Shown: positions 1,963 through 29,875, numbered from the stretch's first letter. The stretch: 64,000 nt of DNA from Candidatus Spongiisociaceae bacterium (GCA_965202665.1 OZ241841.1:384001-448000), one strand, 5' to 3'. Translations and numbers: made by a program. Notes: a model not told the origin generated them from the letters alone.

Positions 1963-1978
1963 CAGGTATCGTTTCCAA
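1963..1978. promoter_or_regulatory. Putative LacI-family operator in a divergent intergenic region
   Basis: GGTATCGTTTCC (revcomp GGAAACGATACC), CG-centred, 1 mismatch from the core of the 29558 site. Confidence 0.55.
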
Positions 1979-2023: not shown

Positions 2024-2773
2024 ATGACCGACCACGATTTTTACGGGACGTTGCCCGGCTTTGCGGGGCGGACGGCGGTGGTGACCGGGGCGGGGGGCGG
2101 CATCGGGCGGGCGGTGGCCGACGGCTTGGCCGGGCAGGGGGCCCGCACCGCCTATCTGGATGTGGCCCCGCCCCCCGATGTCGCGATGTTCGAAGGGCGG
2201 GCGGACAGGTGTTTCGTGGAATGCGACGTGTCGGACGCCGACTCGGTGGACGCGGCCTTCGGGGCGGTGGAGGCCCGATGGGGGACGGTTTCCATTTTGG
2301 TGAACAACGCCGGTATTTTCCGCATTCAGCCGCTGGAGGAAATGACTTTGGCGGATTGGGAGCGGATGCTGTCCGTCAACCTGACCGGGGTGTTCCTGTG
2401 CGCCAAACGGGCCCTGCCGGGGATGCGGGAGGCGGGTTACGGGCGGATCGTCAACCTGGGGTCCAGCGCCGGGAAAACGGGGGGGAGCAAAAACATGGCC
2501 GCCTACGCCGCCTCCAAAGCGGCGGTGATGTCGTTCACCAAGTCGGTGGCCTCCGAATACGCCGCCCACGGGATCACCAGCAACGCTTTGGCCCCGGCCC
2601 TGATAAACACCAGCATGGCGGAGGGCATAGCCGACCTGAAACATCTCATCCCGGTGGGCCGCCTGGGCGAACCGGAGGATGTGGCCCGGGCGGTCCTGTT
2701 CCTGGCCTCCGAGCAGGCTTCTTTCATAACCGCCGAAGTAATGGACGTAAACGGAGGCTTCCTAGTAGACTAA
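2024..2773 (+). CDS. Short-chain dehydrogenase/reductase (FabG-like SDR)
   Basis: TGAGGGIG, NNAG, YAASK and VNGG motifs; GAGGGAG RBS. Confidence 0.92.
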   Translation: MTDHDFYGTLPGFAGRTAVVTGAGGGIGRAVADGLAGQGARTAYLDVAPPPDVAMFEGRADRCFVECDVSDADSVDAAFGAVEARWGTVSILVNNAGIFRIQPLEEMTLADWERMLSVNLTGVFLCAKRALPGMREAGYGRIVNLGSSAGKTGGSKNMAAYAASKAAVMSFTKSVASEYAAHGITSNALAPALINTSMAEGIADLKHLIPVGRLGEPEDVARAVLFLASEQASFITAEVMDVNGGFLVD

Positions 2774-10618: not shown

Positions 10619-11698
10619 TCAACCCGGGCCCGGCCCCGGGCCCTCATCTTTTGATCCGGGTTTGGTCAAACCTATGCGGCGGTAAGCCTCCTCGGGGATG
10701 GCCTCCACCGTCTTGTACACCGTCCAAGTGCATTTTTTGGGTTCCGGACCGGAGGTTTCATCCGGGTAGAGGGGCGAATCCACCACCCGCACCGGATGGC
10801 CCCACCGTTCGGCGGGCAGGCGCTCCAAGGCGAAACAGCAGTGGGCGCAGTAGTAGCACACCCCTTTCTCGTTCCAAGCCCAATCGTGTTCCTCCTGCGT
10901 CACGCCGAACCGGTAGGGGGGCAGAACCCGCGACCCGGTGCCCTCCTCCGGGTCGCCCCGCGAGGAGCGCCCGCCGGAGCCGCACGGGTCGAAACTGATC
11001 ACCCATCGGTCCTCGTATTCGTCGAAGTCCATGTCCCCCCGCCGCTCCGGGCCGCACAGGTGGGCCCGCATCGCCTCGACGGCGGTGTACAGATTGCGGA
11101 AGATGGTGTCGGCGTAGTCCCGTTCCCGCAGGTCGAAGGGCATGTAACGTTCCTGGATGTAAGGTTCCAACGTGCGGCGGTACATGTCCTCCAAAGAGGC
11201 CTCCCCGAAGCGGCCGGCGGCGAAAGCCAAAATCCCCGACAAGTAGTCCACCCACCGGTCGTGCAACATCCGCCACCCTTCCCGCAACCCGTCCATGTCG
11301 GAAACGGCCTCCCGCTCCCCGATCTCGCCGGAACGCACCAGGTTACCCAACCGGCCGGCCCGCTCCCCCAGTTCCTCCCACATCGTGAAAGGCAGAAACA
11401 GCGACCCGTCGGGCAACCGCAGCAGCCAGGCCAGCCTGCGCACCTCGGCGTCCAGTTCCTTCTCCCCCACCCCCCGCTCCCGCAGCCAACCCTCAAACCC
11501 CTCCGACCAAATCTTGTAAATGGAAAAAACCACTTTGGCCTCTTCCATGAAGTAGTCGATCAGCTGGGCGGCCGCCTCCGCTTCCCCTTCCCGCACCGCC
11601 TCCTCAATTTTGTCCACGGTGGGGATGATCTGGTCGGCCCAGTCGCCGGTGCGGACCCGTTTCCCCAAATCGTCGGACCAAGTGAGATTAGTAACCAT
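10619..11698 (-). CDS. Uncharacterised Cys-motif protein (paralog A of 20320..21447)
   Basis: EAMRAH, FDPCGSGG, GVCYYCAHC and CTWTVYK, shared with the paralog; AAAGGA RBS. Confidence 0.8.
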   Translation of the reverse strand: MVTNLTWSDDLGKRVRTGDWADQIIPTVDKIEEAVREGEAEAAAQLIDYFMEEAKVVFSIYKIWSEGFEGWLRERGVGEKELDAEVRRLAWLLRLPDGSLFLPFTMWEELGERAGRLGNLVRSGEIGEREAVSDMDGLREGWRMLHDRWVDYLSGILAFAAGRFGEASLEDMYRRTLEPYIQERYMPFDLRERDYADTIFRNLYTAVEAMRAHLCGPERRGDMDFDEYEDRWVISFDPCGSGGRSSRGDPEEGTGSRVLPPYRFGVTQEEHDWAWNEKGVCYYCAHCCFALERLPAERWGHPVRVVDSPLYPDETSGPEPKKCTWTVYKTVEAIPEEAYRRIGLTKPGSKDEGPGPGPG

Positions 11699-11747: not shown

Positions 11748-12569
11748 ATCAACGCTACCATTCTTGGGCTGGGAGGCGCAGTCGCGTTCGCGGTCGGGTC
11801 GCTGATGACCAAACATTTCGTGGACCGGCTGCCCCCGTTGCAACTCATCGGCCCGCTTTACCTGCTCAACGCCGCCGTGCTGGCGCCGGCCGCCCCGTTC
11901 ACCGACTGGCATTGGACGCCCCGCATTGGAATATTGCATCTGATCAGCCTAGCCGTCATTTGCATTACCGCTTTGGCCATCTTCCGGTTGCTGGAACACG
12001 GGGCGGCCTCGGCGGTCACCACCGCCGCCGCCACCAGCCCTTTCCCGACCGTGCTGGCCACCGCCCTGCTGATACCGGCCGGGTTCCGATGGGTGGAAGC
12101 GGCGGCGGCGGCGCTGGTGGTGGGCGGGGTGCTGTGGGCGGTGTCCGACTCTTTCCAACGGCTGGGGAGGACGGCCACGGTGCTGACCGCGGCGGCCGCT
12201 TCGGCGGGCACCGGGATGACCACGGTTATGGCCCGCCTGCTCATCGACGAAGGGGCCGGACTGGTGGAAATCTACGTGGTGCGCACCGCGCTGGCCGGGG
12301 CCCTGTTCACCTTGGCCGCCCCGCCCCGGGACATTCCCCGCGGGGCCTGGCGGTGGCTGGCGTTGCGGTCCTGTTTCATCACCGGCGGGTTTTCCCTGTC
12401 CATCATCGGCTTGCGCTACGGAAGCCCGGCCCTGGTGCAAACCATGCTGGCCACCATGCCCCTGTTCGTGATCGGAGGGGAAACGATGCTCTCCCGCCGC
12501 CGCCCCAACCTGCGGGTGGCGGGAGCGGCCGCCCTGGCCGCGGCCGGGGTGGCCCTGGTGTCCTTCTAG
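11748..12569 (+). CDS. DMT/EamA-family membrane transporter (start uncertain)
   Basis: About 10 hydrophobic segments in two repeats; ORF open from 11610. Confidence 0.7.
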   Translation: MNATILGLGGAVAFAVGSLMTKHFVDRLPPLQLIGPLYLLNAAVLAPAAPFTDWHWTPRIGILHLISLAVICITALAIFRLLEHGAASAVTTAAATSPFPTVLATALLIPAGFRWVEAAAAALVVGGVLWAVSDSFQRLGRTATVLTAAAASAGTGMTTVMARLLIDEGAGLVEIYVVRTALAGALFTLAAPPRDIPRGAWRWLALRSCFITGGFSLSIIGLRYGSPALVQTMLATMPLFVIGGETMLSRRRPNLRVAGAAALAAAGVALVSF

Positions 12570-13142: not shown

Positions 13143-13457
13143 ATGCAGCGAGCCTGCTTCACTTTTGAGATTTATCCGCACATGGCGGACGAGTACAAGA
13201 AGCGCCACGATGAGATCTGGCCGGAGCTGGTGGATCTTATCCGGGAGTCCGGCTTGAAGAACTACACCCTGTTCCGGCGGGGAACGCAGGTGATCGCCTA
13301 TGTGGAATGCCACCCGGATGTGGAAACCGCCTTCGCCAAGGTGGGGGCCTCCGAGGTGAACGCCCGCTGGTCCAAATGGTTCGAGGAGGTGATCGTCAGC
13401 CTGGTGGACGAGGACGGCAACCTCTACTGGGCGGACGAAGTTTGGCACCAGGACTGA
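13143..13457 (+). CDS. rhaM: L-rhamnose mutarotase family protein
   Basis: EYKKRHDEIWPEL..SGLKNYTLF..VNARW motif; 104 aa. Confidence 0.88.
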   Translation: MQRACFTFEIYPHMADEYKKRHDEIWPELVDLIRESGLKNYTLFRRGTQVIAYVECHPDVETAFAKVGASEVNARWSKWFEEVIVSLVDEDGNLYWADEVWHQD

Positions 13458-13476: not shown

Positions 13477-14934
13477 TTGCCGGTAACGGCGAAGCGGAGC
13501 CCCCGGTTGCTTCTGTCCGAAGGCGCTCCCGCCGGCTCCCGGTTGCGGATCGGGCTGGTGTGCGTCTACTTCGGCCTGTTCGACGAGGCGATGCCCCCCG
13601 AATTCCGGGCCGAGCGGACGGCGGTCGCCGAACGGATGCGGGAACGGCTGGAACGGATGGGGGAAGTGGTCTATCCGGGGCTGGTGGACTCCGAGGAGGC
13701 GGGACGGGCGGCGGCGGCCCTGTTCGCCGAACAACCGGTGGACGTGATCGTGTTCGCCCCCACCATGGCCGCCCCGCCCGGCTACGGATGGGAAGCGATA
13801 CGGGAGTTGGACGGCGTCCCGGTGATCGCAGTGGGGGAACAGGAGTCGCAGGCCGTCCCCGACGACTACCACACCGAGGAGGCCACCCGGCGCAGCCTGA
13901 CCGTGGGCCTGCCGATGTTCACCAACGTGCTGTTCCGGTTCGGGCGCCCTTTCATCGCCTTATTCGGCCATTCCCAAATGCCGGGCATGGACAAAGCCAT
14001 TGGCGATGCGTTGTCGGCGGCGGCGGCCGCGGCGGCGGTGCGCGGTTGCCGGTTGCTGGCGGTGGGCGAGCCCATCCCCGGCTACCTGGATGTGGAAACC
14101 ACCCCGTCGGCCCTGGCTTCCCTGGGGGTGGAAACGGTTGCGGTGGACGCGGACGGGATCGGGGGGGCGTACGAGGCGGTGGACGGATCGGCGGTGCGGG
14201 AACTGGCCGGGCGAATACGGGGCTCCTGCCATTTGGAGGCGGTGGACGAGTCCGTCCTGGAACGTTCCGCCCGCTTGGCGCTGGCTTTGGAAAACTTGTG
14301 CGCCGAACACGGAGCGGCGGGCGGGGCGGTGAACTGCCATGGGGAGGTTCTGCGGCGCAACCCGCGGGTGGGCATCACCGCCTGCCTGGGGGTGACGCGG
14401 TGCAGCGAAATGGGACGGCCTTTCGCCTGCACCGGGGACATCCCGGCCGGGATCGCCCTGCTCATCGGCAAAAAGTTGGCCGGGGCCGCCCTGTATTGCG
14501 AGTTGTATCAACTGGACTTCGCAGGCGACTGGGTGCTGGCGGCCAACGGGGGGGAAGGCGACCCGGCCATCCGCCGCGATGGGGCCCCGTTGCGCCTGCT
14601 CCCCGAAGACCATTACCTGGGGGAGCGGGGGCCGGGCGTGGCGGCCGCTTTTGAACTTCCGGCGGGCCCGGCCACTTTGATGAGCCTGACCCACGTCGAC
14701 CATTCCGACGGATGGGCGCTGACGGTCGCCGAAGGGCAGATTGTAGGGTCCCGCCATCATCGGATGGACGGTCCCAACGGGATGTTCCGGTTCCGGTCCG
14801 GCTCGGTGGCCAAAGGCTACGTCCGCTGGTGCGCGGCGGGGGCCACCCACCACGCCGTCCTCATCCCCGGCCACCGCGCAAAAGATCTGAACAACGTCTC
14901 CAATTTCCTGAAAATTGACTACCGGCCCGTCTGA
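13477..14934 (+). CDS. L-arabinose/L-fucose isomerase-like protein (paralog 1)
   Basis: GAVNCH, C-TGD, GPATL..L, AEG and C-terminal THH, the AraA/FucI fold pattern. Confidence 0.78.
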   Translation: MPVTAKRSPRLLLSEGAPAGSRLRIGLVCVYFGLFDEAMPPEFRAERTAVAERMRERLERMGEVVYPGLVDSEEAGRAAAALFAEQPVDVIVFAPTMAAPPGYGWEAIRELDGVPVIAVGEQESQAVPDDYHTEEATRRSLTVGLPMFTNVLFRFGRPFIALFGHSQMPGMDKAIGDALSAAAAAAAVRGCRLLAVGEPIPGYLDVETTPSALASLGVETVAVDADGIGGAYEAVDGSAVRELAGRIRGSCHLEAVDESVLERSARLALALENLCAEHGAAGGAVNCHGEVLRRNPRVGITACLGVTRCSEMGRPFACTGDIPAGIALLIGKKLAGAALYCELYQLDFAGDWVLAANGGEGDPAIRRDGAPLRLLPEDHYLGERGPGVAAAFELPAGPATLMSLTHVDHSDGWALTVAEGQIVGSRHHRMDGPNGMFRFRSGSVAKGYVRWCAAGATHHAVLIPGHRAKDLNNVSNFLKIDYRPV

Positions 14935-16651: not shown

Positions 16652-18805
16652 ATGAAGGCAGATGAAACTTTTTTGTTGACATTTCTTAATAATGCTCGGC
16701 AGTTGGCAGTTCCCATCTACCAAAGAACCTACTCTTGGGAGGAGCCTGAGTGCCAGCAGCTGTGGGATGACATCCTTAGAACAGGGAGTAACGATCAGAT
16801 CGAAACTCACTTTCTAGGTTCAATCGTATGCCTTGGTAAAATACAAGCGGTAACAAATCCAGAGCCGATGCTAATCATCGATGGACAACAACGGCTAACT
16901 ACTATAACCCTTTTGTTAGAAGCTATTGCTAGATCCATACAACAAGAGTCAGAAATAGTTACTGGATTCTCGACTAACAAGATCAGGTATAACTATTTAC
17001 ATAATGCAAACGAGTCGGGTGAAAAATATTATAAATTAATACTGAACAAAACTGACAAAGAAACCCTGTTTTCTATAATAGATGATGGTCCGATGCCCTC
17101 TATTCCTTCTATACGAATTAAAGAAAATTTTACCTTCTTTATGAATAAAATAGCGGAAGACAAACAAAAACTTTTAATAATTTGTGAAGGAATAGCAAAG
17201 CTGATGATAGTAGATATTTCATTAGACTGGAGTCAAGATAACCCTCAACTAATATTTGAGAGCTTGAATTCTACAGGAAAAGAGTTAAGTCAAGCTGATT
17301 TAATTCGTAATTTTGTACTGATGGGACAAGAGAAGAGGAAGCAGGATCACTTATATAATCGTTATTGGTATACCATGGAAAGTTCTTTTGGTCAAGAGAA
17401 CTATGCAAATGATTTTGATGATTTTATGCGCTATTATCTAACAGTCAAAAATGGAGTAACACCCAATAAAAGAGATGTATATAAGGAATTCAAGCTCTTA
17501 ACATACAAAGAATCACTTGATATAGAAGCCGTCATAAAAGATGTGCACAAATACTCCCAATACTACTGTTACTTGGCATTCGGCCAAGAAACAAATTCAG
17601 AACTGGATAGTAGCTTTTTTGATTTGCAACAATTGAAAACTTCGGTCACATATCCTCTACTACTTGAACTATATGATGATTATGAGAATAATGTATTGGG
17701 TCTGGAGGATTTTGTTACTGCCGTTGGAATCATAGAAAGTTATATTTTCCGTCGGGCGGTTTGTGATATACCATCAAGTTCAATGAAAAAGACCTTCGAA
17801 TCGTTTGCCAGGAAAATAGATAAATCAAACTATCTAGAAAGCCTTACAGCACAGTTTCTCTTATTGCAAACATATAGACGATTCCCCGATAACCAGGAAT
17901 TTGTGGATAAGCTTATTAAAAAAGATATATATAATTTTCAACGCCGTGAATATCTACTTCGCAAGTTAGAAAACTACGGTCGCAAAGAGGCAGTGTCTGT
18001 TAATGAATATACAATAGAGCATATAATGCCTCAAAACGAGAATCTGTCTTCGGCCTGGCGGGAAGATTTGGGAGAAGATTGGGAAGATATTCACACGAAC
18101 CTGTTACATACTTTGGGTAATCTTACCCTAACAGGATACAACAGCGAGTACAGCGATCGCCCATTTGTCGAAAAAAGAGATATGAAAGGCGGGTTTCGAC
18201 AATCTCCATTACTACTTAATAGAGAATTAGGCTCTTTTGGAAAATGGGACAAGGAAGCAATTCAGCACCGTGCCAATCTCTTATCAAAAAGAGCAACCAA
18301 AGTGTGGCCATTTCCGGACTTACCAGACACTGTTATTGATCGATATCGGCCTGTAAAAGCGAAAGGTGTAAGATTTGCTAATTACACCATTGATGATCAC
18401 AAACATCTTATGAAAGGTGCTGCTATGTACCCTCTCTTTCAACGCTTATCACAAGAAATACAGAACCTTGATCCTACCGTGGTAGAGGTTTTTAGAAAAT
18501 ATTATGTTCCATATAAGGTTGAAGACACCAATTTTACAACCATAGAGGGTTATGCAAATAGTTTACAGATAGGCCTATGTATGCCTCTCGCTAAAATTTA
18601 TGATCCTCGTAAGGTGGCTAAGCCAGTACCCCCCGAACATGACCGGGGACGCTCTGAAGCCAGCGTTCGAATCTACGGCACTGATGATATACCTTATGTT
18701 ATGGGGCTTATTCGTCAGGCCTTCCAGCATTTGATCGAAGACGAGGACGAGGACAACCTCCGCCAACCTGAGCCTCTAGGAGACTTGGATGAAGCCTATT
18801 TTTAG
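16652..18805 (+). CDS. GmrSD-like DUF262/DUF1524 protein with a DUF5655-like C-terminal domain
   Basis: PIYQRTYSW, IDGQQRLTT, FESLNSTG, TIEHIMPQ, LGNLTL..YN; AT-rich. Confidence 0.9.
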   Translation: MKADETFLLTFLNNARQLAVPIYQRTYSWEEPECQQLWDDILRTGSNDQIETHFLGSIVCLGKIQAVTNPEPMLIIDGQQRLTTITLLLEAIARSIQQESEIVTGFSTNKIRYNYLHNANESGEKYYKLILNKTDKETLFSIIDDGPMPSIPSIRIKENFTFFMNKIAEDKQKLLIICEGIAKLMIVDISLDWSQDNPQLIFESLNSTGKELSQADLIRNFVLMGQEKRKQDHLYNRYWYTMESSFGQENYANDFDDFMRYYLTVKNGVTPNKRDVYKEFKLLTYKESLDIEAVIKDVHKYSQYYCYLAFGQETNSELDSSFFDLQQLKTSVTYPLLLELYDDYENNVLGLEDFVTAVGIIESYIFRRAVCDIPSSSMKKTFESFARKIDKSNYLESLTAQFLLLQTYRRFPDNQEFVDKLIKKDIYNFQRREYLLRKLENYGRKEAVSVNEYTIEHIMPQNENLSSAWREDLGEDWEDIHTNLLHTLGNLTLTGYNSEYSDRPFVEKRDMKGGFRQSPLLLNRELGSFGKWDKEAIQHRANLLSKRATKVWPFPDLPDTVIDRYRPVKAKGVRFANYTIDDHKHLMKGAAMYPLFQRLSQEIQNLDPTVVEVFRKYYVPYKVEDTNFTTIEGYANSLQIGLCMPLAKIYDPRKVAKPVPPEHDRGRSEASVRIYGTDDIPYVMGLIRQAFQHLIEDEDEDNLRQPEPLGDLDEAYF

Positions 18806-20206
18806 GTAGTTGGCTACTATCGCTATCTGGTCGGCTAGGCGTCCGGGGGCGCAGGCACTGTGGTGGTTGACTCCGGCCAGCGCCCAGCGACGCCACGCCG
18901 CCTCCACCGGGTCATCGCCCGCAAACCGGAAGGCCCCGCCCGCCGTGGGGCTGTCCGGGAAGGAACGTTCGGTTATCTCCCCTTCGGCGGCTATCAGGCG
19001 GAAACCGCTCGGTTCGGCGTGGTGGGGGGTGAAACCGACCAGGGTGGCCGGGCCGGGGGGCAGTTCGAACCAGGCGCTGACCCCGGTCAGCGGGTCGGAT
19101 AGAAACCAGGGGTTGGGCTGCAGGCGGGGGCGAACATCCTCCGGACACCAGGCCAGGTCGTGCTCGCCGGAGTTGGCGATGGCCGTCTCCCCCCGCACGA
19201 AGTCGATCGCCTCCACCTCGTGATACAGGGCCGCCCCGCCCAGCCGTTTCGCCACCAGCATGGCGACCGCCGTCACCACATCCCCGGTGCATGTCCAAGG
19301 AACGCCGCGGGTGGTTTCCCGTCCCAGCGCGAAACAGGGCGTCACGCCCGGGTCCTCCCCGTAGCGGATCTGGGGGACATGGCAGTTCATCGCCCCGGCG
19401 TGGAACCCGCCTTCCCGGTCCAGATCCTCCAAGGCGGCCGCCAGTCGCAGAGAACGGGTGCGTGCCGGCTCGTCGGGGGCGGCGTCCTCAAACCTTTCTC
19501 CGATTTCCGCCTCCAACCGGGATATGTCCGAACAGCGCCGGTAGCGGTCGGCTATCTCGTCCGGGGAAACCGCCGCCACTTCCAGGCCGATGGCCCGGCG
19601 CAACTCCCCGTCGTCCGCATCCACGCAGGCGTAGCCGTCCACCGGCCGCCCCACCCGGGCGATGCGGGCCCGGGACACGGCCGCCGCCGTAGCCGCCGCC
19701 CGAATGACCCGCACCAGCCGCCGATAGACCTCCCCGTCCTGCACCGCCCCCACCGCCAACTCAAAAGGGCGGCCCTCCCGGCCCAGCACGTTGGTCAGCA
19801 TGGGCGTCCCCACCGTCGCCCCCTGGGTGGTGATGTCGTACTGGTCAAAACCCACCCATACGCTGCGGGAACGTTGCGCCGCCCATACGATCACCGGCGC
19901 CTCCGGCAACCCGTCCAAAGCGGTTTTGGCGTACATCGGGGGAACGGCCATGGTCTGCATCGCCAAAATCACCTCCGTCCCCGCCCGTGCCATCTCCGCC
20001 GCCGCCCGTTCCCCCGCCTCCGCCGAATCAACCAGCCCCCGCCACGCTATATGCAACCCGCCCGACTCCTCCCCCGCCGCCGCCAAAGCATCCGCCGCCT
20101 GCTCCAGCAAGCCTTCCCGCTCTTGGCGGAAGCCGGGTCCGCCCGCGCTCGGCTCCCAGAAAGTCCAGTAGGGCGCAAGCAAAGCCACCCGGGGTTGGTC
20201 GGACAT
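18776..20206 (-). CDS. L-arabinose/L-fucose isomerase-like protein (paralog 2)
   Basis: GAMNCH, C-TGD, GPATL, AEG, NHH; collinear with 13477..14934. Confidence 0.78.
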   Translation of the reverse strand: MSDQPRVALLAPYWTFWEPSAGGPGFRQEREGLLEQAADALAAAGEESGGLHIAWRGLVDSAEAGERAAAEMARAGTEVILAMQTMAVPPMYAKTALDGLPEAPVIVWAAQRSRSVWVGFDQYDITTQGATVGTPMLTNVLGREGRPFELAVGAVQDGEVYRRLVRVIRAAATAAAVSRARIARVGRPVDGYACVDADDGELRRAIGLEVAAVSPDEIADRYRRCSDISRLEAEIGERFEDAAPDEPARTRSLRLAAALEDLDREGGFHAGAMNCHVPQIRYGEDPGVTPCFALGRETTRGVPWTCTGDVVTAVAMLVAKRLGGAALYHEVEAIDFVRGETAIANSGEHDLAWCPEDVRPRLQPNPWFLSDPLTGVSAWFELPPGPATLVGFTPHHAEPSGFRLIAAEGEITERSFPDSPTAGGAFRFAGDDPVEAAWRRWALAGVNHHSACAPGRLADQIAIVANYLKIGFIQVS

Positions 20207-20319: not shown

Positions 20320-21447
20320 ATGACCACCGCAACCGACACCCGAATTGAGTTCTCCGACATACTGGGCCGCCGGGTGCGGCTCGGTTCGTGGGAGGATCAG
20401 AAGATCTCCACCTACCGCAAGATCAAGTCGGCGGTGGCGGAGGGAAACTGGGACCACGCCGCCGAGTTGGCCGACTATTTCACCGACGAGGCCAACGTGT
20501 GTTTCAGCCTCTACCGGCAGTGGATAAACGACCTGAACGGCTTCCTCAAAGAACAGGGAACCCCCGCCGACGAACTGGCGGAAATCAACGCCGCCATCGT
20601 GGACAAAATCGCCCTGCCCGACGGCTCCCCCTGGAACCCGCATCGGCACTGGGACCTCTACAAGCGGCAACAGCGGGAACTGCTGTCCTACATCTACCGG
20701 GGGCGGGCGGACGAAGCCGGCCGGGCCTTGGACGGTATGAAAGAAACCTGGCGGCAGACCCACGACCGGGATGTGGATCACACCTACGGGTTGATGTCGG
20801 AAATCCAGGAACGATTCGGTTCGCAGGGGATAGTGGACATGTTCCAGAAACTGCTGGTGCCCCTGTTCGCCTGGCGATACGAAAAGTTCGACATCGACAA
20901 GCACCCCTGGGATGAGGGCTTGGAGGCCCTGATGCTGGTGGCGTGCGAGGCGATGCGGGGCCATCTGGTGGGCCCGGAGCGGACCGGGGACTTCGAGCTG
21001 GTGGAAACCGACGACCGGTTCATCGTCCGCTTCGACCCGTGCGGCTCCGGGCAGCGCACCATCCGCGGCGACTGGATAGAAAACACGCCGGCCCGCATGA
21101 AACCCCCCTACAACTGGGGCGTCTCCCAGGAGGAGGCCTCCTGGAACCATTATCAGAAAGGGGTGTGCCTGTACTGCGCCCATTGCATCATCCTGATGGA
21201 GGAAATGCCGATGGACCGGTTCGGCTATCCGGTGCGGGTGGTGGACCCGCCGGTCTATCCGGACACCGACCGGGACCCGGAGGCGCGGCAACGTTGCCAG
21301 TGGCAGATGTTCAAAGACCCCACGCAGGTCCCCGCCGAATACTACGAGCGGGTGGGACGCACCAAGCCGGAACAATTCGGCTCGTCCCATTTCGACGCCC
21401 CCGAAATGCCCGACGCCGGGGCCCTCGGCCTGCCCGGACTGGGCTGA
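20320..21447 (+). CDS. Uncharacterised Cys-motif protein (paralog B of 10619..11698)
   Basis: EAMRGH, FDPCGSG, GVCLYCAHC and CQWQMFK; AAAGGAG RBS. Confidence 0.82.
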   Translation: MTTATDTRIEFSDILGRRVRLGSWEDQKISTYRKIKSAVAEGNWDHAAELADYFTDEANVCFSLYRQWINDLNGFLKEQGTPADELAEINAAIVDKIALPDGSPWNPHRHWDLYKRQQRELLSYIYRGRADEAGRALDGMKETWRQTHDRDVDHTYGLMSEIQERFGSQGIVDMFQKLLVPLFAWRYEKFDIDKHPWDEGLEALMLVACEAMRGHLVGPERTGDFELVETDDRFIVRFDPCGSGQRTIRGDWIENTPARMKPPYNWGVSQEEASWNHYQKGVCLYCAHCIILMEEMPMDRFGYPVRVVDPPVYPDTDRDPEARQRCQWQMFKDPTQVPAEYYERVGRTKPEQFGSSHFDAPEMPDAGALGLPGLG

Positions 21448-21492: not shown

Positions 21493-22515
21493 ATGCGAGC
21501 CGCCCTGCTACGGGAATACCATCAACCCCTGCAACTTGAGGAACTGCCCGACCCCGTCCCCGGGCCGGGGCAGGTGGTGGTGGACACCCGGGCGGCGGGG
21601 GTGTGCGGGAGCGACGTGTTCCTGCAAAAAGGCGGGTTCGACTCTAGGTTGCCCATCGTGCCCGGCCACGAAGCGGCCGGAGTGGTGTCGGCGGCGGGGC
21701 CGGGGGTGGAAATCCGGATCGGAACCCCGGTGGCCATGTACTACATCGACCACTGCGGGGAATGCCGCACCTGCCGGGCGGGGCGGGTCAACATGTGCCT
21801 GTCGGTGCGCCGCATGGGAGTGGAATTCCATGGGGCGTTCGCCGAAAAGGTGGTGTTGGCGGAACGGAGCGTCATACCGGTTTCACCCGATGACGACCCG
21901 GCCGCCATCGCGGTGCTGACCGATGCGGTAGCCACCCCCTACCACGCCCTGGTGCGCATCGCCCGCGTCGAACCGGGGGAGACGGTGGCGGTGTTCGGAA
22001 TCGGCGGAATAGGTTCCAACGCGGTGCAGTTGGCCGCTCATCTGGGATGCCGGGTGATCGCCGTCAGCCGCACCCCCGCCAAACTGGACTTGGCGGCCCG
22101 GCTGGGGGCGGAGGCGGTCATCCGCAGCGACCGGGGCGTGTTGGAAAACATCGCCGAAGCGGCCGGGGAGGGCGGGCCGGATGTGATCCTGCAGACGGTC
22201 GGTTCGGCGGCGGTGTACGAACAGGCCTTGGCGGCGGCGGGGATCGGATGCCGGGTGATCGCGGTCGGCTCCAGCCTGGAACCGTTGCCGGTGATTCCCA
22301 TGCGCCTCATCTGGAGCGAAGCGGCGGTGGCCGGTTCGCGGGGGTTCACCCCCCGGGACATCAGGGAAGTGATCGAACTGCACCGTTCGGGGGCCATCGC
22401 CACCGGCCATCTGCTGGGCAATCGGATCGAACTGGACGGCATCAACCGGGCCTTGGACGACCTGCGGGCCGGAAAGGTGCTGCGTTCAGTGGTCGCATTC
22501 AAAGACGGCTGGTAA
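21493..22515 (+). CDS. Zn-dependent alcohol dehydrogenase (MDR)
   Basis: GVCGSD, GHE, CxxCxxC-x7-C, GIGGIG. Confidence 0.92.
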   Translation: MRAALLREYHQPLQLEELPDPVPGPGQVVVDTRAAGVCGSDVFLQKGGFDSRLPIVPGHEAAGVVSAAGPGVEIRIGTPVAMYYIDHCGECRTCRAGRVNMCLSVRRMGVEFHGAFAEKVVLAERSVIPVSPDDDPAAIAVLTDAVATPYHALVRIARVEPGETVAVFGIGGIGSNAVQLAAHLGCRVIAVSRTPAKLDLAARLGAEAVIRSDRGVLENIAEAAGEGGPDVILQTVGSAAVYEQALAAAGIGCRVIAVGSSLEPLPVIPMRLIWSEAAVAGSRGFTPRDIREVIELHRSGAIATGHLLGNRIELDGINRALDDLRAGKVLRSVVAFKDGW

Positions 22516-23639: not shown

Positions 23640-24224
23640 ATGATTGAAAAATTCTACCGATGGCGGGCAGCGGCGGGCCGCGAAGCTTACGTACGAGAGC
23701 TGGAGGCAAGCCTGACCCGAGGCTGGAAACAGGCTTACGTCAACGAAACGGCCGATGGCCATAAAATGAAAGACAGTGATATGAGCTACGCTATTGATCA
23801 CATGGTCCTCGGTTTGGAATACGGACCTGCGAATAGCAACCCCTATGCACTGCGGATTCGACACATAGGGCTTAAGAAACATGGAGGCTTGCTGGATATT
23901 GGTTTTGAGGAGACCTTGGATAGACGGGAGGGGCATATTTTTCACGCTCAGGAACCCAACCCAAGATGGATGAAACTTTTAAGGGCGAAGGGGCTACAAT
24001 GGTTAGATATGAAAACGGAAATAACCACCCCCGCCCCGCCGGAGGACTTTTCGGGGCTGTACGATGTCAACGACGAAATTTTTATCGAAGGGCTCAGGAC
24101 CATCCTGGAACGATTGCCCGACGGATACCGATTCGACCCCGACACCGGAATCCTGCTCCGCGACGACCCCACCCTGGACCCCCACCCCTACCTGGGCACC
24201 CTCTACCCCTCGGAAGAGGACTAG
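23640..24224 (+). CDS. Hypothetical protein: BrnT/RelE-like toxin-resembling domain plus a C-terminal module duplicated downstream
   Basis: H..D..YA...IG...GGLLDIG...IFHA...W..LL pattern; internal in-frame ATG at 24009. Confidence 0.5.
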   Translation: MIEKFYRWRAAAGREAYVRELEASLTRGWKQAYVNETADGHKMKDSDMSYAIDHMVLGLEYGPANSNPYALRIRHIGLKKHGGLLDIGFEETLDRREGHIFHAQEPNPRWMKLLRAKGLQWLDMKTEITTPAPPEDFSGLYDVNDEIFIEGLRTILERLPDGYRFDPDTGILLRDDPTLDPHPYLGTLYPSEED

Positions 24225-24473
24225 GGGGGCTAGGTCAGTTCGAACAAGGATGGCGACCGCCCCAGCCCCGCCGGAGAACTTTGCGGGGCTGTACGATGTC
24301 AACGACGAAATGTTCACGGCGGGGTTCTTAGCCGCTCTGGAACGATTGCCCGACGGATACCGATTCGACCCCGACACCGGAATCCTGCTCCGCGACGACC
24401 CCACCCTGGACCCCTACCCCTACCTGGGCGCCCTCTACTCTTCGGAAGAGGGCCAGGGGGGCTAGGTCAGTTC
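24024..24473 (+). repeat. Tandem direct repeat, ~218-bp copies (24024-24241 and 24256-24473), period 232 bp
   Basis: Manual alignment; long identical core plus one strongly diverged ~25-nt block. Confidence 0.93.
24250..24465 (+). CDS. Small hypothetical protein (71 aa), stand-alone copy of the upstream C-terminal module
   Basis: MATAPAPPENFAGLYDVNDE... matches the tail of 23640..24224. Confidence 0.55.
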   Translation: MATAPAPPENFAGLYDVNDEMFTAGFLAALERLPDGYRFDPDTGILLRDDPTLDPYPYLGALYSSEEGQGG

Positions 24474-25469
24474 TCCGGCTCGCCAGGCTTTCAGGTAGTT
24501 CATGCAGAACTCGTCCCGGCCGAGCAGGGTGTCGCAAGCCAGCCGGTAGCCGGGCGACTCCCGGTCGGCGGCCCAAACTTCGGCCACCGGATTCATCACC
24601 GGGTCGATAATCCCGCTGTCCGCCCCCGCCTCCGTCGCCAGGTTGATGAAGGCGGCGTTCATCAACTTGCGGGCCGGGATCCCGAAAGAAACGTTGCTGA
24701 GGCCGCCGGTGATGTGAATGCCGGAACCGAACCGCTCCCTCAAACCGCGGATGGCGTCCAACACGTGCAACCCGTACGACCCATCCACCGAAATGGGGAA
24801 AACCAACGGGTCCACGTAAATGTCGTCCTCCGCCAGCCCCCCCGCCAAAGCCGCCTCCACCATCCGGGAGGCGTTGTCGATGCGCTCCCCGGCGTCGGAA
24901 GGCATGCCCTCCGACCCCGACGAGGTAACTATCACCCGGGCCCCATGCTCCACCGCCAATTCCAAAGCGTCGATCCGTTCCAGGGAAGCCGAGTTGAGCA
25001 TGGGACGGGCCCCGTTGCCGGCCGCCGCCCGCAAACCGGCCGCGATGGACTGCACGTCGGAGGAATCGACCGACACCGGCAACTGGGAGTGTTCCCGCAC
25101 GAACCCGACCAGCCACACCATCGCCTCCCGTTGCTCGGCGGGCCGCAGGGAAATCTCATCCACGTTCACATCCAGGAAATGGGCCCCCGCCCGTTCCTGA
25201 TCGCGGATCACCCGTCGCAGGTACTCCTCCCCCTCTGGGGCGCCCCTCATCGCCTCCCGCACCGCCAAGGCGATGTGCTTGACGCGGCCCTGTTGAAACT
25301 CTTTGCCGGCCGTCATCCATTCCGTCACCGGCAGAAACCCCTCCTCGCCCCCGATGGTGGTGAAAACCACTCCCCCCCGTCCGTCCCGCTCCGCGAACCG
25401 TTTGCCTTTGCGCAACAGGATGCGGCTGGCGTGGATGTTCTCCCCGATGACGATGAAAGGGCCGCTCAC
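24462..25469 (-). CDS. Methylcorrinoid:tetrahydrofolate methyltransferase (pterin-binding, AcsE/MetH-type)
   Basis: VIGENI, LDVN, SVDS, LNS, DPLV, GLSNVSFG; GTG start overlaps the upstream stop. Confidence 0.87.
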   Translation of the reverse strand: MSGPFIVIGENIHASRILLRKGKRFAERDGRGGVVFTTIGGEEGFLPVTEWMTAGKEFQQGRVKHIALAVREAMRGAPEGEEYLRRVIRDQERAGAHFLDVNVDEISLRPAEQREAMVWLVGFVREHSQLPVSVDSSDVQSIAAGLRAAAGNGARPMLNSASLERIDALELAVEHGARVIVTSSGSEGMPSDAGERIDNASRMVEAALAGGLAEDDIYVDPLVFPISVDGSYGLHVLDAIRGLRERFGSGIHITGGLSNVSFGIPARKLMNAAFINLATEAGADSGIIDPVMNPVAEVWAADRESPGYRLACDTLLGRDEFCMNYLKAWRAGELT

Positions 25470-27172
25470 CGCCCCGCTCCCGCCAGCGCCGGCTCCGCAG
25501 GCCCCGCCGGGCCGTCGGAAACGGGGGCGAACGGAAATACTTCCGGCATCGGCTTCAGTTGGCATCCCTCCACGAACACATCGAAGAAGTCGGTAGAGGT
25601 TTCCAGTTCAATGTGGGTTACGTCTTTCACCCGTTCCTCCAGGGCCGCCCGGCGGGAGGCGGACAGCAACACCCGGCGGGCCCCGTCGATGGCCGCATTG
25701 CCCACCCGCGTGATGCGTTCCGGCGGAATGGGCGGTATCAGGCCGATTTCCGCCGCGTTGCGGGCGTTGATGTAGGAGGCGAACCCCCCGGCCAGAAACA
25801 GCCGTTCCACATCGGCGGGCTGCACCCCGGCCGCCCGCATGACGATCAGCTGGCCGCTGTAGTTGGCGGCTTTCGCCTGGGCCAGATTGCCGACGTCCTG
25901 CTTGGAAAAAGTAATGCCCCGTTCGGGGAAGAGATCCATCTGGAAACGGCGCCGGTCGGCGGAGAACACCCCCCGTTCGGTCATAATCCCGTGCCGCCGC
26001 ACTTCGGCCAACAGGTCGATCAGGCCCGACCCGCACAACCCCGCCGGGGGTTGGCCGCCGATGGTGGCGTATTCGGCGGGGGTTCCGTCCGGGGCGAGGC
26101 GGATGGATTCGACGGCCCCCTCGTAGGCCCGCATCCCGTAGGAGACCAGCCCCCCTTCGAAGGCGGGCCCGGCCGGGCAGGAAGCGGCGAACAGCCGCCC
26201 CCGGTGGTGGAGGAGCACCTCGGTGTTGGTGCCGATGTCCACCAGCATGTTGGTTCCGCCCCCGGCCGCCAGATCCACCGACTCCAAACAGGCGGCGGCG
26301 TCGCCCCCCACATGGCTGGCCACCAGCGGCAACCCGTAGACCCGCGCCCGCCGGTTGGCCCGGATGCCCAACTCTTCGCTGCGGGCCAGCAGGGCGGTGG
26401 TGGGGCGGCGGCCGTCCAAATATTCGCGCTCCGTCAGCGACTTGTAAGGTTTGGAGCCGATGCTCTGCACGTCCCAGCCGAACAGGATGTCCCGCATGGT
26501 GGAGTTGCCCGCAACCGTGATCTCGTACACGCAGGGCGGGCGGCGCCCGACGGAGGCGGTCAACTCCCGGATGCCCTGATTGAGGTAGGTGACCGCCGCC
26601 TTCTGCAACTCCCCCGCCGCCCCGGGCTGGGCTTCGTAGGAGATGCGGTTCATCACGTCGCTCCCCCCGAACCGTTGCGGGTTCTCGAAACTGGCCACCG
26701 CCGCCGGGCGGCCGGTTTCCAAATCCACCAGTTCCATCACCACGGTGGTGGTGCCCAAATCCACCGCCAGCCCGAAAATCGCCCCCCGGTAGGAGTCCAC
26801 CCGCTCCCCGTCGTACAACACCGACTCCCCCGCCCGGACGACCAGCGGATCCAACGGGCCGGGAGGGGCGGCGGGGGACTGCGGTTCCAAGATGCGGGGG
26901 CGGCGGCGCAGGGCGGCGAATTCGATGGGGGAGGCCGGGTCCATGATGCGGGCCTGGCAGGCCAGGCGGTAGTCGTCCCGCAGGAAAGCCTCCGCGGCGG
27001 TGGGGGGGAGCAGCGATTCCATGCCGGAAATGATTTCCACCACGCATTCGTGGCATTGGCCGGTGCGGCGGCAGGAAGTGGGCACCTCCACCGCCAGTTC
27101 GTCGGCGTAATCGAAGATGGTCTTGCCCGCCTCCGCCGGACGGGCCTCCCCGCCGTGCCGAACCTCGCTCAT
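25466..27172 (-). CDS. ASKHA-type ATP-dependent reductive activator of corrinoid proteins (RACE, DUF4445) with an N-terminal [2Fe-2S] domain
   Basis: SCRRTGQCHEC..RLACQ, DLGTTT, G.DVMNRI, DIGTNTE, AGPAFEG, GLCGSG, LAGGF, GNAA. Confidence 0.92.
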   Translation of the reverse strand: MSEVRHGGEARPAEAGKTIFDYADELAVEVPTSCRRTGQCHECVVEIISGMESLLPPTAAEAFLRDDYRLACQARIMDPASPIEFAALRRRPRILEPQSPAAPPGPLDPLVVRAGESVLYDGERVDSYRGAIFGLAVDLGTTTVVMELVDLETGRPAAVASFENPQRFGGSDVMNRISYEAQPGAAGELQKAAVTYLNQGIRELTASVGRRPPCVYEITVAGNSTMRDILFGWDVQSIGSKPYKSLTEREYLDGRRPTTALLARSEELGIRANRRARVYGLPLVASHVGGDAAACLESVDLAAGGGTNMLVDIGTNTEVLLHHRGRLFAASCPAGPAFEGGLVSYGMRAYEGAVESIRLAPDGTPAEYATIGGQPPAGLCGSGLIDLLAEVRRHGIMTERGVFSADRRRFQMDLFPERGITFSKQDVGNLAQAKAANYSGQLIVMRAAGVQPADVERLFLAGGFASYINARNAAEIGLIPPIPPERITRVGNAAIDGARRVLLSASRRAALEERVKDVTHIELETSTDFFDVFVEGCQLKPMPEVFPFAPVSDGPAGPAEPALAGAGR

Positions 27173-27549
27173 TCCGCCGCCTCCGAATCGGCCCCGTCCG
27201 CCTCCCGCCGTTGGGCGGCTTCCCGTTTGATGGAGGCTATCTTGTCTTTGGTGCGGCGGTAGGCCCGGGCGTCGGTCTCCCAGGCGGTGCGGTAGTCGAA
27301 GGTTCCGTCGTGGCCGCAGAACAGCTCCTCCGGGTCGGCCTCCTCCGCCCGCTGGTTGCGGCATCGGAACAGGGCGGTGCATCGGTCCAGGCGGTCCCGG
27401 TAGGGGCACCGCAACCGGGACACCTCCTCGGCGTGCGAGGCCACCCCGGTGAAAATCTGGTTGATCCGGTCCAGGCGGAGGCGTATCTCCTCCGGGTCCA
27501 ACGGCTCCGGATGGGGGGGCTCGGAGGCGGGGGGCGGGGATTCGGCCAT
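27169..27549 (-). CDS. Small 4-Cys hypothetical protein in the corrinoid operon
   Basis: C-x8-C-x5-C-x14-C; 3 nt after the corrinoid gene stop; ATGA overlap with RACE. Confidence 0.75.
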   Translation of the reverse strand: MAESPPPASEPPHPEPLDPEEIRLRLDRINQIFTGVASHAEEVSRLRCPYRDRLDRCTALFRCRNQRAEEADPEELFCGHDGTFDYRTAWETDARAYRRTKDKIASIKREAAQRREADGADSEAAE

Positions 27550-27552
27550 CGG

Positions 27553-28302
27553 CTACGCCCCCGCTACGGCCAGTTCTTTGGCCAAAGCCACGCAGGCCAG
27601 GGCGTCTTTGCCGTAGCCGTCAGCCCCCACATCCTCGCCGAATTCGGGAGTGACCGGGGCGCCGCCCACCATGAAACGAACTTGCTCCCGCAGTCCCTCG
27701 TCTTTGAAAGCCTCCACCGTTTTGGCCATGTTGGGCATGGTGGTGGTGAGCAGGGCGGACATTCCGATCACCATGGCGTTGTTCTCTTTGAAAGCGGCGA
27801 TGAACTCTTCCGGGGAGGTGTCCACCCCCAGGTCCACCACCGTGAAACCGCCCCCCCGCAACATCATTATGCACAGGTTTTTGCCTATGTCGTGCAGGTC
27901 GCCTTTGACGGTGCCCATGATCACCGTTCCAACCGGCTCGGAACCGGAGGCGGCCAGGATCGGCTCGATGTGGGCCATTCCGGCTTTCATCGCCCGGGCG
28001 CACACCAGCACCTCCGGCACGAAAATGAAACCTTCGCGGAATTTGATCCCTACGATCCCCATTCCGGCGATGAGGCCGTCGTCCATAATCTCCAAAGCCC
28101 CCACCCCGTTGTCCAAAGATTCCCGGGTCATCTCGTCCACCGCCTCGTTGTCGCCCATGATCAGGGCGGCGGCGATGTCCTGCATCTCCGGCGAGGCGGC
28201 CGCGAACAGTTCTATGTTGCGTTCGATCTCCTCCGGGTCATCGAGGAACTCCTCTATTTCCTCCCGGATGATTTCGCTTACGATATCGGAAAGTTGCGCC
28301 AT
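27553..28302 (-). CDS. Methyltransferase cognate corrinoid (B12-binding) protein
   Basis: GTVKGDLHDIGKN, DLGVD, SALLTTTM, VGGAPVT; N-terminal cap with FVPE. Confidence 0.95.
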   Translation of the reverse strand: MAQLSDIVSEIIREEIEEFLDDPEEIERNIELFAAASPEMQDIAAALIMGDNEAVDEMTRESLDNGVGALEIMDDGLIAGMGIVGIKFREGFIFVPEVLVCARAMKAGMAHIEPILAASGSEPVGTVIMGTVKGDLHDIGKNLCIMMLRGGGFTVVDLGVDTSPEEFIAAFKENNAMVIGMSALLTTTMPNMAKTVEAFKDEGLREQVRFMVGGAPVTPEFGEDVGADGYGKDALACVALAKELAVAGA

Positions 28303-28341
28303 TGTCCCGTTCGGTTGCGTTGCTGCGGCCTGCTCGGCCCC

Positions 28342-28370
28342 ACATTACTGGAAACGTTTCCAGTAGGCAA
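28342..28370 (-). promoter_or_regulatory. Sigma70-type promoter with a perfect 20-bp LacI-type operator covering the spacer
   Basis: TTGCCT-N17-TAATGT on the minus strand; palindrome TACTGGAAACGTTTCCAGTA at 28346-28365. Confidence 0.85.
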
Positions 28371-28427
28371 GCCGCCGGCTAAAAAGGTGCTGCGGCCCCG
28401 CCTCGGAAAAGGGCCTCTTGCCGGGCT

Positions 28428-29546
28428 TTACCCTCCGTTGTGGGTTACAAAACGCCCGTCGGGACGGTGGGCGTTGGAATAGTCCCGGCAGGAGTCGGCC
28501 AAAGCCCGCAACACTTCCATTTTGGTGCCCAGCGGCACCGAACCCTCCGGGGCGATCCCCTGCACCCCCGCCTCCAGCACCGCCATACAGGCGTCGTAGG
28601 TGTCCTGGTAGGTGCCGCTGAACAGGGTGGTCGGGTTATTGATGTTGCCCATCAGGGACATGCGCCCGTCGGTGATGCTCATGGCCTTATACGGGTCCAC
28701 CTGCGATTCGAAGTGGAAGCAGTCCCATCCCGCTTCGGCGAAGTAGTCGATGCGGTCGGTGGTTTCCCCGCAACAGTGCAGGATGCCGGGCCCGCCCATC
28801 TCGGCGGAAATGTGCTGGTGCATTTCCAGCAGGAAATCCCGGTAGGTTTCGGGGCTGACCAACTCCCGGTTGGCGTGGTCGCACCACATCACCGCGTCCG
28901 CCCCCGCCTCGAACTGGGCGTGGGCCGACATCATGGAGGCGGGCAGCAGCACTTCCAGAAAACGGCGGATCTTGTCCGGCTCGGTGAGGGTGCCCATCAG
29001 CCAGTTCTCGATGCCCACCATATGGAACCCCACCGACCAGGCTCCGTACACCTTGCCCACGATGGCCACATCCGGATAACGTTTGCGCAACAGCCGGATG
29101 GCCCCCAGGACCGCCTGAAAAGAGCGCCTGTTCAGATAGTCGGAGGGGACTTTGAAATCCTCCGGGTCGGTCAGCACGTGGCTTTTAGTGGCGGGCCAGT
29201 TGTCCCGCTCCCCCCACCAGGTGTCGGCGTCCAAAGCGTCGGCTTCCAGCTGGGAGTGGAACACCGGCATAACCGTGTCCAAACCCAGGTTTTCGTGGGC
29301 GGTGGCGGCCAGGCGGGCCATTTTCTCCGCATCCAGATGGGCTTCGGGGAAGTCGGCGTCGGCGATGTCCATGGCCTCCAACGTCACCACCGAACTGAGG
29401 GTCATGGCCGGCACCTTGTCCACCCGCCCCCCGTACAGGGCCGACAGAAAGCGGCGGCGGGGGGTCATCCACTCCCCCGACAGCCGAGCCGTGCGGGGAG
29501 GTTCGGCCACCTCCGGTTTGCGCGCCTTGTCCCTGGTGTAAGCCAT
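28428..29546 (-). CDS. MtaA/CmuA-family (UroD-fold) methyltransferase
   Basis: FPEAHLDAEKMARLA, EADAL, ILHCCG, LMGNIN. Confidence 0.88.
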   Translation of the reverse strand: MAYTRDKARKPEVAEPPRTARLSGEWMTPRRRFLSALYGGRVDKVPAMTLSSVVTLEAMDIADADFPEAHLDAEKMARLAATAHENLGLDTVMPVFHSQLEADALDADTWWGERDNWPATKSHVLTDPEDFKVPSDYLNRRSFQAVLGAIRLLRKRYPDVAIVGKVYGAWSVGFHMVGIENWLMGTLTEPDKIRRFLEVLLPASMMSAHAQFEAGADAVMWCDHANRELVSPETYRDFLLEMHQHISAEMGGPGILHCCGETTDRIDYFAEAGWDCFHFESQVDPYKAMSITDGRMSLMGNINNPTTLFSGTYQDTYDACMAVLEAGVQGIAPEGSVPLGTKMEVLRALADSCRDYSNAHRPDGRFVTHNGG

Positions 29547-29557
29547 ACATCCCTTTC

Positions 29558-29588
29558 CTGGAAACGTTACCGGAAATTAAGGATACCA
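29558..29588 (-). promoter_or_regulatory. Extended -10 promoter plus a second LacI-type operator
   Basis: TGGTATCCT (minus strand, 29588-29580); CTGGAAACGTTACCGG at 29558-29573 next to the RBS. Confidence 0.72.
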
Positions 29589-29626: not shown

Positions 29627-29875
29627 CTATTCGGGCGGGGGCGGGTCCACCAGCAGGGTGACCGTGTTGTCCACGATCTGCATGAAACCCCCGGCGGCCG
29701 CCACTTTGATGCGGTCGGAGCCGGATTGGATTTCCACCTCCCCGGCGGCCAAGGCGGCCATCAACGGCTCATGATGGGCCAAAATCCCCATCTCCCCTTC
29801 CAGAGTGCGGGCCACCACGAACTCGGCCTCCCCCGACCACTGCACGGCCTCCGGCGAAACCACGTCCACCCGCAT
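29627..29875 (-). CDS. atpC: ATP synthase F1 epsilon (short, beta-domain only)
   Basis: VVSPE..W, GEMGILAHH.P, GGF; position in operon. Confidence 0.92.
   Translation of the reverse strand: MRVDVVSPEAVQWSGEAEFVVARTLEGEMGILAHHEPLMAALAAGEVEIQSGSDRIKVAAAGGFMQIVDNTVTLLVDPPPPE

Follow-up and report, generated by a model that had tools for sequence, protein, structure and literature searches.

Which methyl donor is served by a corrinoid methyl-transfer operon whose substrate-side enzyme resembles a methanogen coenzyme M (CoM) methyltransferase? The question is raised by a 64,000-nt stretch of DNA from a Candidatus Spongiisociaceae bacterium (GCA_965202665.1 OZ241841.1:384001-448000; henceforth, the window), in which five genes at 24462..29546 encode a UroD-fold methyltransferase (MT), a corrinoid protein (CP), a small protein with four conserved cysteines (the 4-Cys protein), an ATP-dependent corrinoid activator (RACE), and a pterin-binding methyltransferase (MT2). 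Because this operon shares an operator-like site, and a common pattern of gain and loss, with genes for the uptake and breakdown of sugars, we consider it somewhat probable that it takes a methyl group from an O-methylated sugar or sugar acid and delivers it to tetrahydrofolate (H4folate), with MT as the substrate-side methyltransferase (MT1); in which proposal we infer both the substrate and the direction.

The operon and its components

All five open reading frames (ORFs) are intact, lie on the minus strand, and belong to families matching those of the complete corrinoid methyl-transfer module that the original prediction had described from this segment (Table 1). MT and CP are separated by 125 nt and CP and the 4-Cys gene by 3 nt, after which 4-nt overlaps join the 4-Cys gene to RACE and RACE to MT2, so that the tight spacing attributed earlier to the last four genes is confirmed. 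The RACE product presents the domain order Fer2, RACo middle, and RACo C-terminal, with an N-terminal Cys cluster and the DxGTT and DxGTN motifs; MT2 is a predicted methyl-corrinoid:H4folate methyltransferase; and the 4-Cys protein, for which neither Pfam nor NCBIfam gave a match, is possibly a metal-binding accessory. With a putative MT1, a DxHxxG CP, an MT2, and an ATP-dependent activator encoded together, the operon is, as judged from its predicted products, a four-component corrinoid-dependent methyltransferase system, and the earlier suggestion that the UroD-fold protein is the substrate-side enzyme is supported, MT being the likely MT1. No MttB- or MtaB-type MT1 had been recognized in the window, and the genome-wide data agree: the two MttB matches of the genome lie at 957.9 and 1,755.8 kb, and MtaB was found in none of the 29 genomes of the family.

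The location directly behind atpC, which had also been pointed out, is real as an adjacency (80 nt) and carries no further meaning. ATP synthase genes adjoin the operon in only 1 of the 43 related loci (L035), and we therefore regard atpC as a border and not as a partner, any functional link between the two being rejected. Scans for sigma-70 promoters and terminators performed no better than chance. A 220-nt direct repeat (24024-24241 and 24256-24473; 89% identical) spans the MT2 stop codon and yields two short convergent ORFs; and a tartrate dehydrogenase gene at 22528-23589 (TIGR02089, above the cut-off) is a neighbour of the operon in this genome and its closest relative alone.

An island of sugar-catabolism type

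The operon forms the right end of an island of ca. 41 kb in which 35 genes were called (372,219-413,546 of the host genome, G000; -11.8 kb to 29,546 of the window). The left extension of the island encodes a sugar-type ABC importer, whose sugar-binding protein lies at 378,142-379,212 of G000, and a LacI regulator at 380,410-381,456. It also encodes an enolase-family dehydratase (best match, a galactonate dehydratase, under the cut-off), a VOC protein, an amidohydrolase, E1 beta and alpha subunits with a lipoyl domain, and short-chain dehydrogenases/reductases (SDRs), of which the island has three. The remainder adds isomerase-like proteins (one of the xylose and two of the L-arabinose type), a mutarotase, a GFO dehydrogenase, a Zn-dehydrogenase, and two paralogs of U375, a protein of 375 aa that belongs to no known family.

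This association recurs in other genomic backgrounds. In a Chloroflexota genome (G201), the reciprocal best hits of 17 of the 35 island genes lie on a single contig, around MT, compared with none for the 9 genes further to the left; and in a low-GC locus (L139) the order SDR-VOC-dehydratase-SDR-MT-CP-4Cys-RACE-MT2-E1b-E1a forms a single same-strand run. Among 80 metagenome loci, many of them on short contigs and comprising 12 with a Gly-type MT (see below on position 335), 66 with a Cys-type MT, and 2 that were unreadable, the island SDR adjoins 6 of the Gly-type and none of the Cys-type genes, while the dehydratase adjoins 5 of the Gly-type, the Cys-type loci giving one weak match of 26% identity.

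U375 had no sequence match in Pfam, NCBIfam, or PDB and no Foldseek match at E<=0.001; its model (pLDDT 92.5) resembles only generic helical bundles (Z<=8.7), and in Atlas it leads to unnamed clusters and, with a value of 0.80, to PF14196. The family counts 801 cluster representatives at E<=0.001, with conserved Cys, His, and Glu residues, and two paralogs per island are common.

Insertions break up the island, namely an ISL3 transposase, a vWA protein, and a low-GC stretch (window 4477-5418, 8800-10578, 15048-18805). The low-GC stretch carries what we take, from reading the sequence, to be a DNA-methylase-like and a DUF262-like gene. Beyond the ATP synthase operon, a cluster of hydantoinase A/B, amidohydrolase, and sugar-type ABC transporter genes occupies 45651-54533.

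Table 1. Positions in the window of the operon, of the island genes, and of the candidate operator sites
Feature	Position	Strand	Remarks
Xylose-isomerase-like TIM-barrel gene	1..776	-	Runs off the window; the island extends ~12 kb further left
GFO/IDH/MocA dehydrogenase	829..1926	-	Chloroflexota-type loci L122, L141, and L144 have its ortholog immediately ahead of MT
Weaker palindrome copy	1964..1977		3 mismatches; divergent GFO/SDR gap
SDR dehydrogenase	2024..2773	+	Reciprocal best hits
U375 paralog	10619..11698	-	~43% identical to U375
EamA-family transporter	11805..12569	+	Reciprocal best hits
L-rhamnose-mutarotase-like protein	13143..13457	+	PF05336; TIGR02625 under cut-off
L-arabinose-isomerase-like protein 1	13507..14934	+	ORF opens at 13477
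L-arabinose-isomerase-like protein 2	18776..20206	-	Island member
U375	20320..21447	+	375 aa; in exactly the family genomes with intact MT
Zn-dependent dehydrogenase	21493..22515	+	Pfam; reciprocal best hits in relatives
Pterin-binding methyltransferase (MT2)	24462..25469	-	335 aa, GTG start; PF00809; PRK07535 195 bits, under cut-off 259
RACE/RamA-type ATP-dependent corrinoid reductive activator	25466..27172	-	568 aa; PF00111, PF17651, PF14574
4-Cys protein	27169..27549	-	126 aa; C48, C57, C63, C78, H80 invariant across 61 homologs
Corrinoid (B12-binding) protein (CP)	27553..28302	-	249 aa; PF02310 + PF02607; DxHxxG...SxL motif, DxHxxG at 135
Perfect palindrome copy (TGGAAACGTTTCCA) upstream of CP gene	28349..28362		LacI-type operator candidate
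UroD-fold, MtaA-like methyltransferase (MT)	28428..29546	-	372 aa; PF01208 191 bits; likely substrate-side MT1
Palindrome copy upstream of MT gene	29559..29572		LacI-type operator candidate
atpC	29627..29875	-	Neighbour only, right border of island; outside the system

A shared operator-like site

A 14-nt palindrome, TGGAAACGTTTCCA, was first spotted by eye upstream of MT and CP. The window holds 2 copies, against 0.31 expected, a number that was reached in 4 of 100 shuffles. Genome-wide, at <=2 mismatches, 6 intergenic matches were found, 4 of them in the island (before the MT, CP, and E1 genes, and in the divergent importer gap), which island represents 1.6% of the intergenic DNA. When the two discovery sites were left out, the enrichment gave p=1.5e-3 (2 of 4 sites, <=2 mismatches) and p=7.8e-4 (3 of 12 sites, 3 mismatches). 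In the related loci, the palindrome stands near MT in 11 of the 21 belonging to lineage A, 1 of the 6 from Chloroflexota, and none of the 16 of lineage B (a second acidimicrobial lineage, described below), background windows scoring 2 of 1026. Similar sites precede the U375, mutarotase, SDR, and binding-protein genes of the Chloroflexota islands, and orthologs of the island LacI adjoin the operon in L045, L046, L121, and L141; the host genome contains three LacI-like genes. The form of the palindrome suggests that it is a LacI operator, and the arrangement, a candidate palindromic operator with a central CG upstream of putatively co-regulated genes and with a LacI gene nearby, is that of a LacI-family regulon.

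The putative regulon, with its importer, LacI repressor, and genes of catabolism, speaks against transfer in the reverse direction, from CH3-H4folate through the corrinoid to some acceptor as in a biosynthetic methylase. That direction, which would agree with the fact that MtaA-type enzymes normally demethylate the corrinoid, strikes us as improbable; the MetF-like genes that occur inside the operon in the Chloroflexota loci L070 and L073 fit either direction.

Joint presence and loss

An intact MT is present in 23 of the 29 family genomes, in 9 of 401 sampled Acidimicrobiia, and in 3 of 201 genomes of the Chloroflexota class that contains G045. U375 occurs in exactly the same 23 family genomes, for a pattern agreement of 29/29; 22 of these also have the dehydratase, the exception being an 83%-complete draft (agreement with MT, 28/29). 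All three genes are missing in G011 and G019, in the latter of which a deletion (L033:6417-10164) removes most of MT and the start of the CP gene and leaves RACE and MT2 in place. In the acidimicrobial sample the dehydratase was found in 10 genomes, including 8 of the 9 with MT; and in the Chloroflexota sample U375 was found in 5, including all 3 with MT.

Two functions that could have linked MT to a different metabolism follow another pattern. Agreement with MT reaches only 19 of the 29 family genomes for the PF02574 homocysteine methyltransferase, and likewise for XcbA. The search for a separate MetH, which the original prediction had recommended, returned no PF02574 protein in G000 (one contig, 94% complete), nor in five more MT-bearing genomes of the family (6 of 23 in all), and a split methionine synthase was rejected, no homocysteine module having been found in the genome. 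XcbA, though found in 23 of the 29 family genomes, is lacking in the genus g4 (0/3), which possesses MT, and a CoM link of MT was rejected upon this failure of the CoM cluster to track it. That cluster (L004; G000:C1:2,516,459-2,530,563) includes XcbA (358 bits, above the cut-off), a lyase, pyridoxal-phosphate genes, an SDR, a CoA transferase, an acyl-CoA synthetase, and a MetE-like protein of 368 aa, which protein is by its context a probable epoxyalkane:CoM transferase. Other genes of the cluster we take to be ComA-like and 2-ketopropyl-CoM carboxylase-like.

A split methionine synthase, or a methyl-CoM transferase tied to this cluster at 2.52-2.53 Mb, is thus a very improbable identity for the operon, even if the former shares carrier, pterin, and RamA modules with it (PMC12478193) and the nearest solved relative of MT methylates CoM. 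In addition to the discordant distributions, the thiol-binding third Cys is gone from MT, as detailed below, and an MttB-type module with DUF1638 is already present at 953-960 kb. This second corrinoid module, of the MtgBCD type (L001:4464-14294; 950-960 kb of G000), comprises CP, DUF1638, pterin methyltransferase, RACE, MttB, and MetF-like genes, and neighbours a dimethylglycine-dehydrogenase-like gene and genes for an electron-transfer flavoprotein; the second MttB lies apart, at 1,755.8 kb.

The one-carbon genes that had been recommended for inspection are present, MetF-like, FolD, and Fhs being encoded, the last beside formate dehydrogenase genes. Queries with cobT, cobH, cobI, and cobJ gave no match in the genome, which result suggests that the host takes up B12.

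Host and distribution

The host genome is a single contig of 2.77 Mb. Its closest named relatives are Ca. Spongiisociaceae (Acidimicrobiia), whose MT is up to 93% identical, in keeping with the earlier assignment to a probable actinobacterium, and the names of those relatives point to an association with sponges. The epithet acetogen-style, applied to the system in the original prediction, is valid for the four-component architecture and must be limited to it, because the genome contains a gene for a heme-copper oxidase subunit I and marine aerobes carry systems of this kind (PMC12478193).

The 43 related loci comprise 37 of Acidimicrobiia type and 6 from Chloroflexota. Of the 37, 34 have called RACE and MT2 genes, the other three being cut off by the end of the contig; a 4-Cys gene was called in 30. 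Lineage B accounts for 16 loci, in which the operon is 82-85% identical and the neighbours differ, being M24 peptidase, hydantoinase-like, and nucleotidase genes. A quick, unfinished MT tree had suggested transfer of the operon from Spongiisociaceae to this lineage; in an approximately unbiased (AU) test on MT+CP+MT2, for which 19 rows were chosen, a single clade of lineage A was not rejected (p 0.74), and we therefore claim no donor.

The unlinking of the operon in lineage B would be explained if MT were a methanol:corrinoid methyltransferase other than MtaB, the small donor being freed downstream, for example methanol that the dehydratase splits off a 3-O-methyl aldonate. The dehydratase is in fact the most widely kept partner, in lineage B as well, and no MtaB was found in the 29 family genomes. 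We know, however, of no UroD-family methanol MT1, and judge this explanation rather unlikely.

Three low-GC (0.42-0.45) metagenome contigs (L138-L140) carry the operon with an MT identity of 75-78%, as part of a single run that also includes dehydratase and E1 genes. Genomes of the genus g2 (L029-L032) contain a second MtaA-like gene, of the Cys type (PECA) and ~41% identical, with only a corrinoid gene adjoining. Moorella has an MT relative of 52% identity, which may be the mtaA-like gene that falls on methanol (PMC13391211).

Fold and predicted metal site of the methyltransferase

The model of MT (pLDDT 93.8) has as its best fold match the MtaA of Methanosarcina mazei (4AY8; TM-score 0.86/0.94; root-mean-square deviation 1.4 Å), and MtaA (4AY7/4AY8) is also the best sequence match (E 6.5e-45, 29% identity). 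MT, which is the only UroD gene of the host genome, scores 234.6 bits with the MtaA/CmuA family model TIGR01463 (cut-off 235.4) and lies far under the MtaA and MtbA equivalogs (NF040654, 222.7 against 400; NF041608, 156.2 against 600). H257-x-C259 is kept; the PGCG of MtaA aligns with PEGS, with Gly335 in place of the third zinc Cys. In an alignment of the query with the best 120 of 1249 homologs, Gly occupies position 335 in 83 of the 86 nearest sequences, the other 3 having gaps there, whereas 34 of the 35 outer relatives have Cys. Within the inner clade, among the homologs listed, E280 and H97 are near-fixed, and the extra C258 in HCC is invariant (86/86). The metal site predicted for MT is of the His/Cys/carboxylate type instead of His-Cys-Cys. 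Since His-Cys-Cys is the mark of UroD-family S-methyltransferases, the O-methyltransferases replacing one or both Cys (PMC10418091, Kountz and Balskus), the loss of the third Cys points away from a thiol substrate. A precedent for an MtaA-family protein serving as MT1 is MtpA (10.1101/548461).

The same island and the same direction would, nevertheless, accommodate an S-CH3 or N-CH3 bond on a sugar-like molecule, such as a methylthio-sugar, an N-methylated amino sugar, or part of a nucleoside; the evidence from island and regulon fits this alternative equally. The fold is closest to that of the S-methyltransferase MtaA, the additional C258 could be read in the same sense, MtpA and MtsA are MtaA-family thioether demethylases (10.1101/548461), and hydantoinase-like, M24, and nucleotidase genes are among the neighbours of the operon in lineage B. 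The third Cys typical of S-methyltransferases is gone, however, and no sulfur-handling genes recur beside the operon, so that we hold such a substrate to be unlikely.

Of the donors offered in the original prediction, the methylated sugar is favoured by the island, the operator, and the co-loss, and the methyl halide and the methyl sulfide are disfavoured. CmuA and CdmB are UroD-superfamily MT1s accompanied by a corrinoid protein and a folate MT2 (PMC13222342), and the setting is marine; but the identity of MT to CmuA is only 25%, MT and CP are separate genes with no trace of the MT-corrinoid fusion, and a gas would need neither a sugar importer nor LacI control. A utilization of methyl halides or dimethylsulfide after the manner of Cmu, Cdm, or Mts appears to us the most improbable of all the explanations considered.

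Proposed pathway and its weight

If the operon demethylates an O-methylated sugar, the ABC importer would bring in the substrate and the LacI repressor would be released. MT would activate the O-CH3 bond and methylate Co(I) on CP, from which MT2 would pass the methyl group to H4folate; RACE, perhaps with the 4-Cys protein, would re-reduce oxidized cobalt at the cost of ATP. The methyl group might then be oxidized for energy through MetF, FolD, Fhs, and formate dehydrogenase or enter one-carbon use, and the freed sugar skeleton could proceed through the isomerase, dehydrogenase, lactonase, dehydratase, and 2-oxoacid dehydrogenase steps of the island.

Several observations weigh against this interpretation. 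Alkyl methyl ethers are poor methyl donors, and the direction of transfer is not readable from gene content. The metal ligands were read off alignments and not from model coordinates. Every island enzyme falls well under the cut-off of its nearest named family, and the label sugar is therefore to be understood at the family level only. In lineage B the dehydratase and one isomerase are kept only at a distant locus (5 of 5 regions), where the SDR and E1 genes are found in 1 of 5; the island Zn-dehydrogenase is missing there (0/5), as is U375 (0 of 6 genomes). The palindrome is not near MT in 10 of the 21 lineage-A, 5 of the 6 Chloroflexota, and all 16 lineage-B loci, and LacI operators look alike. 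Kin are, finally, not independent, so that the co-occurrence is descriptive and rests on a handful of events.

Neither the architecture nor its occurrence in an aerobe is new, given the MT1/CP/MT2/activator systems of acetogens (PMC13222342) and the MtgBCD of marine aerobes (PMC12478193). The titles and abstract openings covered, a scope outside which most subscription papers lie, described neither this operon nor a corrinoid enzyme that demethylates carbohydrates; the demethylase known for the marine carbohydrate route is a P450 (PMC6292453). The operon may, as a more tentative proposition than the demethylation itself, encode the first vitamin-B12-dependent carbohydrate O-demethylase, in which a methanogen-type MtaA fold would have traded its third zinc Cys for an oxygen-friendly site and joined a LacI-controlled pathway made up of uncharacterized enzymes.

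Methylated sugars, which stand in the way of carbohydrate breakdown, build up in the surface waters of the ocean (PMC6292453). If the proposal is correct, the B12 route would add a new chemistry to the MtaA family and would mark a sink of methylated sugars that has gone unrecognized: sponge symbionts, and Chloroflexota of other habitats, would use degradation-resistant methylated sugars and keep the methyl group on folate with no release of formaldehyde. The regulon makes the question testable, as the binding protein of the importer and the LacI regulator are open to ligand screening without culturing the symbiont, and the finding provides a setting for two conserved proteins that fall outside the known families.

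Comparison with known systems

MtaA of M. mazei, a methylcobamide:CoM methyltransferase, shares with MT the fold and the H-x-C motif, and differs in that MT has lost the third Cys, is partnered by a folate MT2, and has no tie to CoM synthesis. MtpA, with MtpC, of Methanosarcina acetivorans is, as proposed for MT, a substrate-specific MT1 of the MtaA family; that system is archaeal, acts on a thioether, and delivers the methyl group to CoM (10.1101/548461). The four-component logic toward H4folate, with an MT1 of the UroD superfamily, is that of Cdm of Acetobacterium dehalogenans and of the aryl O-demethylases (PMC13222342), which are described from anaerobic acetogens with haloalkane or aryl-ether substrates, whereas the present operon has an extra 4-Cys gene and a putative sugar regulon. 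CdmB is nearest to the O-demethylases and is portrayed in that source as having no zinc, while MT is MtaA-like; CdmB was not among the fold matches listed for MT, which does not exclude kinship.

With MtgBCD(E) and the split methionine synthase of marine aerobes the operon would have in common cobalamin-dependent demethylation to H4folate, an oxygen-respiring host, and reductive reactivation (PMC12478193). The MT1 of MtgBCD is, however, of the MttB family and its substrate is glycine betaine, as against a putative UroD-fold MT1 here, in a genome with no homocysteine module. CmuA/CmuB of Methylorubrum extorquens CM4 likewise combine a UroD-fold MT1, an aerobic host, and a folate acceptor; CmuA is fused to its corrinoid domain and keeps PGC. 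The type 1 mlp clusters also place MtaA-like proteins (Mlps) outside the methanogens, together with a corrinoid protein and RACE; these clusters have at least two Mlps, retain His-Cys-Cys, show no folate methylase nearby (20 kb), and belong to obligate anaerobes (PMC10418091), whereas here the genome has one UroD gene and the pterin methyltransferase lies inside the operon.

The P450 CYP236A, a 6-O-methyl-galactose demethylase, has the job proposed here, namely, the unblocking of a methylated sugar in marine bacteria; it is oxidative, O2-dependent, and of unrelated fold, and as there described does not keep the methyl group on folate via B12 (PMC6292453). The MT and its operon thus stand outside MtaA by the zinc site, outside CmuA by the fusion and the identity, outside the type 1 mlp clusters by the single Mlp and the folate methyltransferase, and outside the split methionine synthase by the missing homocysteine module.

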